Below the pieces are notes generated by a model. It worked only from the letters and a program-made list of their open reading frames with translations. It ran no database searches and was not told the DNA's origin. A stretch of DNA of 64,000 nucleotides from the NCBI GenBank assembly GCA_964291215.2, contig OZ219791.1:2624001-2688000 (forward strand), in the 5' to 3' direction. The stretch is from Alphaproteobacteria bacterium. Its GTDB lineage: Bacteria > Pseudomonadota > Alphaproteobacteria > MPNO01 > UBA830. Below, in pieces: positions 5,016 to 21,344 of the stretch (within the stretch, counting starts at the first letter, position 1; every line of letters begins with the position of its first letter). Position numbers and translations under genes: made by a program.

Positions 5016-6590
5016 TTGACACTGTAGGAGAAACGTATCTACTCATCCCTAGTTGGGTTCTGATTGGTCGTAGTGCTCGTTGATGATGTCTGCGGCTTTT
5101 CCGTCGAGGGCGATCTGGGTTGCGACGTGATGATTGTAGCCGAGTGCGGCCATGGAGGTGAGGTAGCTTGAGCCCCGGCACCATGCTTTTGCGTGGAGCG
5201 GAAGCATCCGGGCACCTTGACCTTTGCCATCCTGATCTTCTGTTCTCCGGCATTGTTGGTGAAGCTGGCATCGGAGTCGTCCGTGAAGCGCAGGTTTTCG
5301 TGTTTCACGAGACGTTCGTGCAGGTTGTGCGCGTCGGACTTGCGTCCACGTTTTCCTTTCGGCGGGATGTCGGGCAGTTCCCTGGCGCCCTGATGGTGCG
5401 GTAGCGCTTGCGCCCGGCGTCGTTCAGGGTTTTGGATGCGCTCTTGTTGACCTTGTGGCAGACCTCGCGGAGCAGGCTCTTCATCAGTCGCGCGGTAGCC
5501 TCGACGACAAAGGTCAGTTCGCGCAGCAGGTGGCTGCCGCACAACTGGTGACTACACTGCCATGTACGAGGCCCAGGACGCCCTTGTAGCACGGGATGAT
5601 GCCGATCTCTTGCCTCTCGGCCGCGCTTGCGGTGCGGGAACTTGCACGTCAGGGTCCCACGACATGGAGCCACTTGCTGTTGATCCGAAATCGTCGACAT
5701 CGGGCGTTGCAGGAGGTGCGCCACGGCGGCCTCCTCCCATGACGCATCGTGAAAGCATGGCCGAGGCCTCGGAGAGCTTGATGCCGGAGACCGCCTGCAC
5801 GAGCGCGACGGCGCAGGGACAGCATCTGGGCGACCAGCAGGTTGATGACGAGGGCCTGGATGCCGTACTGCACGGGATGTTGTCGGGGAACCGGCCCTTG
5901 CACTTCGGGCATTCCTCGGCGTCGATGCGGCGCGACCTCGAACACGATGTCGTGCGGCGCTCGACGGGGTCGACGCCGTCGGCGCCGCAGGCGTCGCAGG
6001 CCGCGACCGTCTCCTCGACGATGGTCTTGCGCAGGTTGTCGCCCATCTGCTGGTTTGGCTTCAGGCCGTTGCTCCCGGCACGCTCTTGTCCGTCTGTGAC
6101 GGCGGCAGACCGGAGTTCCGGCTCGTGCGTGGTCTTCTCCAGAAGGACGACGATGAGGATGTCGAGCAGGAGGACGCGGATCACGGCATCTTCCGCCACC
6201 TTGCCGGCAGCGCCGCGGTCTTGGCCGCTTCGAACTCCTCGCGCGCCGCCCGTCGCCATCACCCGGCCTCGCCGCGAGCATTGCCTGGCGCTCGCCCGGC
6301 GGCATCTTCCGGTACTCCGCCGCCCGGCCTTGCGCTTCATCAGCACGCCGCCTTCGAGATGCGTTTCCACATACAGATCATGCGGAGGCTGGAGCCCCGG
6401 AAGCAGCTGGCACAGCCCGCTCGTCGCCTTCGATCCAAAGTAGCCCACTGGCGGTCCCCATCGTTCTCGATGACCACCACTAAGCGAATCGGCATGCAGT
6501 GTCAAATCTCCACGTAAACCCGTTCGTTGCTCTACCCCGGCATCAAGCCGGAACCAGGGGGTGAGCAGTTACAGAGAAACCTTCTACGGG
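5016..6590 (+). promoter_or_regulatory. Putative MTase promoter split by IS66 copy A
   Basis: Removing 5035-6580 restores TTGACA-17 bp-TACGGG upstream of MTase ATG 6626; the IS66 copies have a similar TTGACACTG-containing promoter. Confidence 0.45.
5035..6572 (-). mobile_element. IS66-family element copy A, with truncated adenine MTase and degraded transposase
   Basis: Ends GTAACTGCTCACCCC / GTATCTACTCATCCC; TSD GGAGAAAC/AGAGAAAC; transposase remnants HQLCGSHLLREL, FTNNAGEQKIRMAKVK. Confidence 0.85.
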
Positions 6591-6972
6591 ACTGGCCATC
6601 GGGGCGGATCGCGTCGGAGGCGGTGATGGCGGCATGGTACGGATCGAAGGCGACGACGGGTCTTTGCCAGGCGATCGTCGCAGCGATGCCGCCGCATGAC
6701 GTGTACATCGAGGCGTTCCTTGGAGGCGGCGCGATCATGAAGCGCAAGCCGCCGGTGCTGCGCAGCATCGGCATCGACCTCAATCGCCGGGCGATCGACA
6801 CCTTCCGTTGCGACCACCCGGTCGAACTTCACCATGACTGCGCCCTGCGCTTTCTCGCGACCTTCGCGTTCCAGGGCCGCGAACTGGTCTACTGCGACCC
6901 GTGCAGTCGACGCGCAGGTCGCAGCGCCGCTACCGCTTCGACTGCACGGACGACGACCATGTTGCGCTCCTC

Positions 6973-17968: not shown

Positions 17969-19753
17969 GTATCTACTCACCCCTAGTTGGGTTCTGATTG
18001 GTCGTGGTGCTCGTTGATGATGTCTGCGGCTTTTCCGTCGAGGGCGGTCTGGGTGGCGACGTGATGATTGTAGCCGAGTGCGGCCATGGAGGTGAGGTAG
18101 CTTGGCACCATGCTTTTGCGTGGAGCGGAAGCATCCGGACACCTTGACCTTTGCCATCCTGATTTTCTGTTCTCCGGCATTGTTGGTGAAGCTGACGTCG
18201 GGTGCGCCAGGCAAACTGGTGGAATGTGGCCGGGTGCAAGTCCCGAGAGAGGCTAATTTCTCCGTGAACCATGCGTCGCCAGGCGAAGCGTTGGGGAGCG
18301 GCAGGCTATTGAGCCACGAGATGCTTTGAAACCGGAGTGCCGAGGTCGTGGCCGAAGGCAACGAGCCGCGTTGGTGAGGGGGGCTCCGCGGGGTCCGAGA
18401 ACCAGGGCACGCGCCGAAGCAGGGACCTGGGAGGTCTTGCCCCTCTGTCGTGGAGGGGCCGCAGAGGAAAGGAACTAATCCGTAAACCGATGATGAACGA
18501 GAAGTCAGATTCGGCCATAGTACCGTTGAAGGCGGCGAACAAGGGTTCTTCGGAGCCTGCGGAGTTGTTGGAGGGAAGGGCAATGCGGTTGGCCCGCGCC
18601 GCGCGCAGAAGCGGGGGTCACAGGCGGCTGAACGCAGGTAGCGAAGAGGAACCCGGAAGAGCGTCTTTACTCCACCACGTGACGTTCTGCACGATGCGTT
18701 CCATTCCTTGAGGAAGGACGCGGCGGCGGGGCGTTGTGTGGCAAACGTACGGGGTGGAACTGCCTGCACGCCCGTGTGCACAGGGGCGGGCGCCTCCAGG
18801 GTTTACATACCCAAGGAGGATGGAGGGCAACTTGCCTCGGACAAGATTCTTCAGCGGGCGGTGTGATTCTGGTGCCGCGAGACGGAGTTCCTCGGGTTTA
18901 GTTACGGCTTCCGGCCGGGGCGCATCATGCGCCGTCACGGTGGAACGGCGGAAGGTCAACTGGATCGTTGACGCTCGTGGGTTCTTCGACAATCTCGACC
19001 GCGACCATCTGGTTGCGATGCTCGGGAAACGGATCGGGGGGTCTGATCATCAAGTGACGCCGGCGTCATGGAAGGGACCGACTGGCAAGGGAACACCGCA
19101 AGGGGCGGCGCCCTGCCTTGCGAACCTGCACTACGTGCGACTGGTTCCAGAACCACTGGCGCAAGCGGGACACGATCATTATGCGGACGACTTCGTGTGC
19201 GGCTTTCAGAATCTGGGCGACGCTGGGACCTTGGGGAGAGACTGGCCCACTTGAACTGCACCCGGAAAATCATCGAGTTCGGTCGGTTTGCCAGAGCGAA
19301 CCGCCGGAAGCGTGGACAAGACGTTCGACTTCCTCGGCATGACGCACTTCTGCGAACAGACGAGGAAAGGCAGGTTCAGGGTCGGTCGCAAACGGGCACC
19401 CTGCGGCGGATCAAGGAGGCCTTGCGCATGCGGTGGCACGATAACCGGCACGAAACGGCCAAGTGGTGAGTTATCAACGGCTGCTACTACGCCGTTCCAG
19501 GAAGCAGCCTGCAGAAGTTCATACACCAATGCAAACAGCTGCGTGCCCTTCGGCGACGCTCCCAAAAGGACTTCACCGGGGACATAGACACCCTCACCGC
19601 TGCCCACTGAGCCCGTGGCCAAACCAGCGCCTTGTCGTCAGGGGAGGAGCGAACAGCGCACGTCCGGTTCTGTGCGGGGGGTAACCCGGTTCCCTACCGC
19701 GATGGTCGTCTGTGAAGCGCAGGTTTTCGTGTTTCACGAGACGTTCGTGCAGG
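17969..19753 (-). mobile_element. IS66 copy C (right part only), containing group II intron
   Basis: GTATCTACTCACCCC end; sequence matches copies A/B; cut off by copy D. Confidence 0.8.
18202..19703 (+). mobile_element. Group II intron, degraded (copy 2)
   Basis: GTGCG...CCCTACCGCGAT; collinear with copy 1; same insertion site. Confidence 0.88.
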
Positions 19754-21344
19754 GTATCTACTCACCCCTTGTTGGGTTCTGATTCATAGTGCTCGTTGAT
19801 GATGTCTGCGGCTTTTCCGTCGAGGGCGATCTGGGTGGCGACGAGTGGGTTGTAGCCGAGTGCGGCCATGGAGGTGAGGTAGCTTGAGCTCCGGCACCAT
19901 GCCTTTGCGTGGGGCATGGTGCGGAAGCATCCGGACACCTTGACCTTTGCCATCCTGATCTTCTGTTCTCCGGCATTGTTGGTGAAGCTGACGTTGGGGT
20001 CGTCTGTGAAGCGCAGGTTTTCGTGTTTCACGAGACGTTCGTGCAGGTTGTGCGCGTCGGACTTGCGTCCACGTTTTCCTTTCGGCGGCGGCGGGATATC
20101 GGGCAGTTCCCTGGCGCCCTGCGTGAGGATGGTGCGGTAGCGCTTGCGCACGGCCCGGCGTCGTTCAGGGTTTTGGATGCGCTCTTGTTGACCTTGTGGA
20201 AGACCTCGCGGAGCAGGCTCTTCATCAGTCGCGCCCAGCGGTAGCCTCGACGACAAAGGTCAGTTCGCGCAGCAGGTGGCTGCCGCACAACTGGTGGCTA
20301 CACTGGCCCATGTACGAGGCCCAGCAGTCAGGACGCCCTTGTAGCGCGGGATGATGCCGATCTCTTGCCTCCCGGCCGCGCTTGCGGTGCGGGAACTTGC
20401 ACGTCAGGGTCCCACGACATGGAGCCACTTACTGTTGATCCGAAATCGTCGACATCGGGCGTTGCAGGAGATGCGCCACGGCGGCCTCCTCCCATGACAC
20501 GAGCGCATCGTGAAAGCATAGCCGAGGCCTCGGAGAGCTTGATGCCGGAGATCGCCTGCACGAACGCGACGGCACGGCGCAGGGACAGCATTTGGGCGAC
20601 CAGCAGGTTGATGACGAGGGCCTGAATGCCGATGCCGTACTGCACGGGATGTTGTCGGGAAACCGGCCCCGGGCCTTGCACTTCGGGCATTCCTTGATCT
20701 CGGCGCGGCGCTCGACGACCTCGAACACGATGTCATAGAGGACGCGGCGCTCCCGATCGACGGGGCCGTCGATGTCAGCGTCGCAGGCCGCGACCGTCTC
20801 CTCGACGATGGTCTTGCGCAGGTTGTCGCCCATCTGCCGGTTCGGCTTCGGGCCCTTGCCGTTGCTTCCGGCACGCTCTCGTCCTTGTCCGTCTGTGACG
20901 GCGGCAGACCGGAGTTCCGGCTCGTGCGTAGTCTTCTCCAGAAGGACGACGATGAGGATGTCGAGCAGGATGACGAAGACGCGGATCACGGCCTCTTTCG
21001 GCACCTTGCCGGCCGCACGCAGCGCCGCGGTCTTGGCCGCTTCGAACTCCTCGCGCGCCGCGTTGACCGTCGCCATCACCCGGCCTCGACGGTCATGATC
21101 GTCGCGAGCATCGCCTGGCGCTCGCCCGGCGGCATCTTCCGGTACTCCGCCTTGCGCTTCATCAGCGCGCCGCCTCCGATGGCACAGCCCGCTCGTCGCC
21201 TTCGATCCAAAGTAGCTCACTGCCGGTCCCCGTCGTTCTCGATGACCACCACTAAACGAATCGGCCTGCAGTGTCAAATCTCCACGAAAACCCGTTCGTT
21301 GCTTTACCCCGACATCAAGCCGGAACCAGGGGGTGAGCAGTTAC
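19754..21344 (-). mobile_element. IS66 copy D with truncated MTase, intron-free
   Basis: Both terminal repeats present; no matching TSD. Confidence 0.85.

Follow-up and report, generated by a model that had tools for sequence, protein, structure and literature searches.

An Upf31-like methylase-fold gene with its own promoter dyad precedes the transposase in IS66 and IS701 elements and may act as a portable repressor unit

In the insertion sequences (IS) described here, a promoter, a dyad and a gene for an Upf31-like protein of methylase fold precede a single transposase gene. From sequence comparisons we consider it probable, at roughly 60%, that the protein binds the dyad, represses the transcript shared by the two genes and caps the transposase output. 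The unit is likely a switch by which the element turns itself off, and not a protection from restriction enzymes. Precisely, the promoter would work and yield one transcript for gene and transposase, and the protein, as a dimer, would bind the dyad and repress the promoter. Entry into a naive cell would then give a burst of transposase followed by shut-off, which would extend in trans to copies whose dyad matches. The promoter-dyad-gene unit would derive from plasmids or phages.

We considered as the window the whole stretch of 64,000 nucleotides that was analysed. Its features, by window position and strand, are the following.

4772..5034 (+): left portion of an element of the third lineage, with the end GTATCGACTCACGCC at 4772 (presumably IS66-like, from its likeness to IS66 ends), the -35 box TTGACA at 5017-5022 and the first half of the dyad
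5035..6572 (-): copy A, a non-autonomous family 1 IS66 element inserted in the dyad of the third-lineage element; its flanks match at 7 of 8 positions
5076..6259 (-): IS66 lineage-1 transposase of copy A, frameshifted, with tblastn pieces in several frames
6259..6448 (-): methylase-like remnant of copy A, which keeps motifs X and I and the tail after deletion of the core; not in frame, with the TGATG overlap
6477..6505 (-): promoter of copy A, TTGACA-17-TAGTGG, with its dyad off-consensus
6626..6972 (+): N-terminal half of the Upf31-like gene of the third lineage, which has lost its DPPY to a frameshift at about 6900
6973..10242 (-): copy B of family 1, within the third-lineage gene and flanked by an 8-bp duplication; its remnant, ORF 10118-9930, keeps the frame up to the TGATG
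7213..8926 (+): degenerate group II intron in the transposase of copy B (Rfam RF02005 and RF00029)
10243..10559 (+): C-terminal half of the Upf31-like gene of the third lineage, with TGATG at its end
10559..10655 (+): start of a lineage-1-like transposase, about 32 codons and then an unrelated repeat; by eye, it resembles lineage-1 N-termini
17969..19753 (-): right end of a fourth family 1 copy, truncated by copy D and holding another copy of the group II intron, from 18202
19754..21344 (-): copy D of family 1; remnant 21220-21076 without motif I and out of frame, no matching duplication

Copies A, B and D are dead single-transposase IS66 elements, all on the minus strand, and their ends, GTAACTGCTCACCCC ... 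GGGGTGAGTAGATAC, were read at 6572/5035 (A), 10242/6973 (B) and 21344/19754 (D). The layout that the initial annotation had read in these copies (end, promoter, methylase, TGATG, transposase) was confirmed in the sequence and through 119 full-length matches of family 1 in the genome, with an exact 8-bp target duplication in 77 of the 111 copies having both ends; around copy B the duplication lies at 6965-6972 and 10243-10250. The loss of the catalytic region from the three methylases was likewise borne out, the deletion spanning from MKRK to the C-terminal tail. The remnants begin at a GTG (A 6448, B 10118, D 21220), and the TGATG overlap joins their end to the transposase ATG in all three (A 6259, B 9930, D 21076), as had been claimed, but the frame to it is kept in B only (189 nt long, versus 190 nt in A and 145 nt in D). 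ETHL.GG is present in the remnants of A and B and absent from that of D, and the SAM-binding motifs with DPPY, present in intact members, are lost in all four window copies. The three transposases are all frameshifted, the window copies yielding frameshifted pieces only, and no intact family 1 transposase was found in the assembly. The window copies are non-autonomous relics, which were probably moved in trans and probably lost their transposase before the repressor core was deleted. An assembly artefact is an unlikely origin of the small deletions, which are common to several copies; variants with indels of 5-7 nt occur in public-run contigs from one study, which may include the source sample. 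The joint 5027>6574, corresponding to the empty site without copy A, is in contigs of two of the three public runs. The group II intron of copy B has 78 matches longer than 500 nt across the genome.

The left part of the third-lineage element matches a second genomic copy. Its gene at 6626-10559 had been taken for a full-length methyltransferase; it is instead broken three ways, by copy A in the promoter dyad, by the frameshift at about 6900 (where a contig from one of the three public runs has 7 extra letters at 6899) and by the insertion of copy B.

Intact methylase-like genes are found elsewhere in the genome, in one copy with family 1 ends and in 10 of the 12 copies of family 2. Intact elements are 2.3-2.5 kb in length, have GTAA-type terminal inverted repeats and carry the methylase-like gene and the transposase only, with no tnpA/tnpB. 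The family 2 transposase scores 257 bits with NF033517, above the cut-off, as do its intact relatives, and an 8-bp target duplication flanks 10 of 11 family 2 copies and 43 of 76 loci of other genomes. In family 1, 166 of the 171 classified copies are short, having lost the methylase core. The idea that repressor loss drove the expansion of family 1 found no support. Among uninterrupted copies only one has a gene of nearly full length, and its transposase region (1189 nt, 4% divergence) is just as decayed (n = 1 for this comparison); the dyad, moreover, had left the consensus already in the copy whose gene is intact. Copy number does not track the gene, which speaks against the repressor reading: here there are 12 copies with it and more than 100 without it, and in other genomes dozens with an intact gene. 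A sparing of the family 2 gene during decay of the transposase was also discarded, as 8 deletions in the transposase versus 1 at the gene's last codons were not significant (p = 0.19).

The gene lies directly upstream of an IS66 transposase at 74 of 76 genome loci and at 66 of the 72 scorable metagenome loci and, in the reverse search, upstream of all three lineage-1 transposases outside the source genome, at one of them in part only. The layout is therefore, as first proposed, shared by several transposase lineages and not a one-off capture, the gene being integral and under selection. The same promoter-dyad-gene unit is shared by two IS66 transposase lineages and one IS701 element; in two loci (L029 and L079) the genes are 76% identical and the transposases 29%. 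The IS701 element, present in two copies, encloses the unit in perfect 16-nt inverted repeats, and it is the only proven IS701 carrier (G404), the ends of two further candidates (L214 and L220) not being definable; another (L198) resembles an IS66 copy interrupted by an IS701-like insertion and was rejected. Since one unit serves unrelated transposases, action via transcription is more likely than action via protein contact. Among the metagenome contigs, a loose pair of inverted repeats was found in 31 of 41 and a duplication in 2 only, while 39 of 80 were too short, which makes this evidence weak.

The close clade of homologues is bound to IS elements, whereas distant ones (mostly 35-55% identity) are carried by plasmids and phages and not enclosed by IS ends. 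The initial annotation would have been refuted by homologues lying mostly outside IS ends, and this is half the case, for the distant homologues but not for the close clade. Conjugative plasmids hold most of the relatives (124/152), which also adjoin P2-type nicking replication genes. None of 72,556 plasmids carries a member of the IS clade (at least 60% identity), the closest plasmid-borne transposases are about 34-37% identical, and lineage-1 transposases had no match in viral contigs. In a sample of the phylum, 2 of 400 other genomes matched, with lower scores.

Among tested homologues, the closest to the IS protein is Upf31 (upf31.0), known from the IncP-1beta plasmids pBP136 and R751 (PMC11997246; Elg et al. 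2025). The homology to the pBP136 protein is full-length, with 43.4% identity over 217 aa (E 2e-51), and the alignment includes the C-terminal domain, with its helices, besides DPPY and ETHLGGG. Upf31 is an autorepressor: when a hybrid Upf31 was present, a reporter under the protein's own promoter fell from 4.76 to 0.09 units of activity, and the mutants Y180A, F185A and W198A lost repression (PMC11997246). In Upf31 numbering, W198 is invariant in 59 IS proteins; of these, 51 have Y or F at position 180, while at position 185 F occurs in 38 and H in 19. The systems differ in that the IS gene is within IS ends, is coupled to a transposase and lacks the KorB partner, and its function is a predicted one; moreover, the IS elements have one dyad with half-site CATAG, while Upf31 has dyad clusters with CATCG.

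The closest folds are those of E. coli Dam and DpnM (D12 class), with which the protein shares DPPY and perhaps a control exerted at a transposase promoter; a search of the PDB by sequence gave no match. Motif I and DPPY are 62 residues apart, versus about 145 in the dam profile, and the target-recognition domain that Dam has between motifs I and IV (about 85 residues) is missing. The expected PF02086 domain was found as a weak match, but at 19.5 bits it stays below the 22-bit cut-off (weak matches, E <= 0.01, in 22 of 37 homologues), and TIGR00571 gives 24.8 bits versus a cut-off of 114.85. Further differences from Dam and DpnM are that the gene is encoded by the element and that the conserved site is not GATC. 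The homodimer prediction scored 0.21, with the mark at 0.42.

The missing recognition domain could also suit a weak, non-specific or single-strand-specific methylase that guards transposition intermediates or their vector from restriction, the dyad only limiting its toxicity. The conjugative plasmids and nicking genes around the relatives agree with this and, by analogy, so may the single-strand methylases reported from plasmids (PMC7736820). We consider it quite improbable: an IS has no cell entry of its own, the plasmids searched hold no member of the IS clade, and Upf31 gave no general methylation in a methylase-free strain (PMC11997246). The shielding of DNA from restriction put forward by the initial annotation found no positive support.

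The gene is under purifying selection, with a dN/dS of 0.07-0.21 versus 0.08-0.32 for the transposase (9 pairs), and median identity is 77% for the gene and 71% for the transposase; the protein tree was a quick tree. These values bear on whether a strong portable promoter was the main capture, with the gene a translationally coupled passenger wedged between it and the transposase. Methyltransferase passengers are known, as transporter IS (tIS) comprise IS220 (IS1380 family) with such a gene and are reported in the IS66 family too (PMC11891212), and the elements here resemble tIS in having an additional methyltransferase-annotated gene inside the IS ends. Family 1, in addition, spread widely after loss of the core; its transposases being dead, however, its copies are no test of the need for the gene. 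A passenger is hardly likely in our opinion, since the gene's dN/dS is as low as the transposase's and the left half-site of the dyad is conserved though outside the -35 and -10 boxes. By definition, tIS passengers are uninvolved in transposition, whereas this gene is upstream of the transposase, coupled to it, co-diverging with it and provided with its own dyad; coupling and selection point to a putative role in transposition.

The dyad, TTGACA-RCATAG-N10-CTATG, is in the promoter of 88 of 92 IS loci. Its TAG-N10-CTA core begins where the -35 box ends and extends into the -10 box, with the same geometry as in upf31p (TTGACA-GCATCG-N10-CGAGAC). Among 82 distinct 22-mers the conserved positions are T4 (80), A5 (82), G6 (82) and C17 (79), the TA at 18-19 being imposed by the search pattern. 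The middle 10 bases pair at chance level only, so the dyad is not a hairpin. In 88 elements scanned, no second dyad-like site was found at the ends or recurring elsewhere; a methylation site in the element ends was therefore rejected, and of the two places suggested for a motif, inverted repeats or promoter, only the promoter holds the putative site. Since these promoter sites had themselves served to build the score matrix, their top rank is circular. Genome-wide, 23 strict sites (12 beside TTGAC) versus 15.4 expected gave no signal outside the elements.

The same site could serve an operator-specific methylase, which would methylate the adenine of each half-site, including the -11 A of the promoter, so that replication or a new host would briefly free the promoter. 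Host Dam controls IS10 and IS50, and such a switch, compatible with repression by binding, would be its element-encoded counterpart. DPPY is invariant in 83 of 83 aligned family members and the SAM motif nearly so, Dam and DpnM have the nearest fold, and the -11 A is the sole adenine that the IS dyads (CTA) share with the dyad of upf31p (CGA), with its mirror T4 conserved in 80 of 82. Promoter function explains the conservation of this adenine as well, however, and its TA is part of the search pattern; 58 of 59 IS proteins have His in place of the Phe of motif I; and methylation by Upf31 was not seen by DpnI/MboI-type digestion or SMRT (PMC11997246), although a bipartite site of 22 bp could have escaped the SMRT test, which used motif finding in an E. 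coli strain with an expression vector. We hold this switch to be rather unlikely. Equally doubtful is its broader form, in which unrelated IS families adopted a self-contained epigenetic switch: a reduced Dam-fold enzyme would bind and methylate a single target, the -11 adenine of its own 22-bp operator, transposase would be produced only from DNA that has just been replicated or has just entered a cell, and intact copies would silence all matching elements in trans. Of the self-methylating control initially proposed, control of transposition is likely, while self-methylation is disfavoured by analogy with Upf31 and by the missing recognition domain.

Some observations run counter to the repressor reading too. 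It is not obvious why a pure repressor would need the invariant DPPY and the nearly invariant SAM motif. The dyad is off-consensus in family 1, already in its copy with an intact gene, and in L079, whose genome has 25 matches. KorB is absent from the IS, yet the fitness effect of Upf31 was ascribed to a predicted KorB contact (PMC11997246). Autoregulation is also usual for toxic methylases, hence the dyad is no proof that repression is the purpose.

By their transposase (NF033517 and PF03050), GTAA ends, 8-bp duplication and absence of tnpA/tnpB, the IS66 elements resemble the ISBst12 type, which we take to be the single-transposase subgroup of IS66, but they have in addition a selected gene, a promoter and a dyad upstream; the classical IS66 subgroup differs by its accessory genes tnpA and tnpB, missing here. 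ISBst12-type is a subgroup name in a table of PMC8024623. In the literature, searched with the exclusion of ISfinder, we found no IS66 or IS701 element with this gene-operator unit.

IS elements usually keep their transposase in check through frameshifting, antisense RNA, the transposase itself or host Dam. A regulator of methylase fold dedicated to this task, having an operator of its own and exchanged between IS66 and IS701 transposases, would, if true, be a further mode of control. The 82 natural variants define a putative binding site of Upf31-type proteins, and the IS elements offer a two-gene system in which such proteins can be tested as repressors only or as operator-specific methylases; if the epigenetic switch were true, the same chemistry would account for the unexplained IncP-1beta repeats. 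The finding suggests a possible regulatory role for many of the genes that are annotated as DNA adenine methylases on IS, plasmids and P2-like phages.

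Single-transposase IS66 elements are referred to as ISBst12-type. Insertion sequences with methyltransferase passengers are on record, including tIS in the IS66 family (PMC11891212; TnCentral preprint 10.1101/2021.05.26.445724), and ISBst12 is tabulated as a subgroup name (PMC8024623). Our full-text literature search found no description of an insertion sequence containing a gene like that of Upf31, an autorepressor of the IncP-1beta plasmid pBP136; a catalogue entry in ISfinder may exist. The arrangement of such a gene with a transposase in insertion sequences is real.

The initial annotation had suggested counting how often homologues lie directly upstream of IS66 transposases, and the count was 74 of the best 76 of 556 genome loci and 66 of 72 scorable metagenome loci. 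Precisely, the genome loci, from about half of the collection, came from 14 assemblies titled Alphaproteobacteria, Dehalococcoidia, Binatia and Tectimicrobiota, many being copies within the same genomes, and ends with an 8-bp duplication were found at 43 of the 76. For the metagenomes we considered the best 80 of 567 loci, 8 of which end too early; the next gene was otherwise an IS701-like transposase (3), ribF (1) or a gene of no family (2). A reverse search by transposase in 361 genomes besides the source genome gave three loci; in each of them the gene lies upstream, and at one locus it is incomplete. The two gene-carrying IS66 transposase lineages (1 and 2) are about 30% identical to each other. 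An IS701 element with the gene is 2.78 kb long and present in two copies; its 16-nt ends are perfect, and 5-bp repeats flank it. At the homologue loci L214 and L220 the cassette (promoter, dyad and gene) was located 100-140 nt upstream of a second, distinct IS701/IS4-like transposase, and element ends were not found.

Three IS66 copies with left end, promoter, truncated methyltransferase frame, TGATG overlap and transposase had been described in the window; the sequence bears them out as members of one family (family 1).

Family 1 copies in the window, as read from the sequence
5035-6572, minus strand: copy A
6973-10242, minus strand: copy B, with a group II intron
7213-8926: the group II intron inside B
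19754-21344, minus strand: copy D

The intron family has 78 genome matches >500 nt, and the intron occupies the identical IS66 transposase site in two copies (the one in B and another from 18202). A further IS66 transposase piece (28078-29019, minus strand) shares 66% identity with lineage 2, and a cassette gene was not detected next to it. On visual inspection of the translations, two small ORFs at 11256-11893 (minus strand) resemble a pair of an antitoxin and a PIN-type toxin. A 108-nt tandem repeat in six copies lies at 51119-51958.

The methyltransferase gene at 6626-10559, previously taken as full-length, is not intact: copy A lies in its promoter, it has a frameshift at the catalytic motif and it is split by copy B. 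It represents a third lineage, separate from family 1, and about 32 codons are left of the transposase after it. The site without A is present in contigs of two of three public runs.

Family 1 is represented in the 6.15-Mb genome by 119 full-length matches; its left end occurs 232 times and its right end 190 times, with an exact 8-bp duplication at 77 of the 111 copies having both ends. Among 204 left parts (171 classified, 33 unclassifiable), the methylase-like core was missing in 166 of the classified ones and mostly kept in 5, one of which (C2:872935) has an intact 219-codon frame, DPPY and the TGATG overlap. Read in this copy, the two deletion end points have 8 bases in common, which suggests a microhomology deletion. 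Judging from one informative copy, loss of the core in A, B and D probably came after their transposases had already been inactivated, and hence the window copies are no test of function. More than 100 non-autonomous family 1 copies, at ~3% divergence, stand beside no intact family 1 transposase found in the assembly, and would have been moved by a source acting in trans. Mobile elements genome-wide (including window 5035-21344) carry many small deletions common to several copies; their size distribution has maxima at 5-7 nt and at 12 nt, and some show 3-5-nt microhomology, a pattern that may be a host repair signature; nearby single-copy genes, e.g. the purC-like ORF at 16927-17694, appear intact.

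Family 2, a second family of the same genome, is 2357 bp long and has 12 copies, most >99% identical, with an intact 219-residue frame in 10 of 12, duplications at 10 of 11 and a frameshifted transposase start common to all 12.

Homologues of the gene form 3,761 clusters at 90% identity among 5,140 candidates, and the gene scores under the cut-offs of both the Pfam and TIGR Dam profiles. The nearest structures to a predicted model (pLDDT 76) were those of DpnM and of Dam from E. coli (TM about 0.55). DPPY is invariant and, since motif I to DPPY spans only 62 residues, the Dam recognition domain is absent; two C-terminal helices follow. Upf31 of pBP136 is 43.4% identical over 217 residues. Distant relatives were found on 152 plasmids (124 conjugative; every one <60% identity), in 21 phage records and in 75 viral contigs, the last without any IS66 transposase near the gene; among those phage loci that were examined, it often comes after a P2-type nicking gene. 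In a quick tree (83 proteins, midpoint root) all 59 IS-borne proteins group together as a single clade (SH-aLRT 97), placed amid relatives from phages and plasmids, with transposase types intermixed inside the clade.

The promoter TTGAC(A/T)-17-TA was found upstream of the gene in 88 of 92 IS loci. Right behind the -35 box, 82 distinct sequences have RCATAG-N10-CTATG, conserved at T4 (80), A5 (82), G6 (82) and C17 (79). Positions 3 and 20 covary (73% complementary vs 51% shuffled, a figure inflated by kinship), and there is no base pairing across the dyad middle. In family 1 the dyad is off-consensus at positions 4 and 17, including the copy with the intact gene. No second conserved site was found in the IS elements, nor any at their ends. 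The dyad of upf31p, the own promoter of Upf31, has identical geometry with a CATCG half-site, and such dyads also occur at plasmid and phage loci, often several per locus. Iterated CATAG/CATCG-N10-CTATG/CGATG dyads around the gene, flanked by TGGCCA, CTGCAG or GGTACC, were observed in L085 (3900-3990), L247 (3920-3990, 4671) and L263 (2855-3010); as these loci belong to P2-like phages and to plasmids other than IncP, the pattern of the IncP-1beta repeats extends beyond IncP.

According to Elg et al. (PMC11997246), Upf31 represses its own promoter about 50-fold, requires Y180, F185 and W198 for this, and has the IncP-1beta inverted repeats as proposed binding sites; every one of the 59 IS proteins has W198. 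The same study reports no methylation by digestion or SMRT, although the test may, in our inference, not have contained the operator. Together with the invariant catalytic motif, this leaves some room for a switch by operator-specific methylation, which we consider unlikely. An anti-restriction role, or passive cargo, is weaker than either repression or such a switch, and each is quite improbable. The gene has dN/dS of 0.07-0.21 (9 pairs) and co-diverges with the transposase in lineage 1 (Spearman 0.69, non-independent pairs); element copy number across genomes does not track the state of the gene.

With a probability of roughly 0.6, we favour repression. The gene product would bind the promoter dyad and, by analogy with Upf31 from binding on, the bound protein would shut the promoter driving both gene and transposase, so that in a naive cell transposase would be produced on arrival of the element and later capped.
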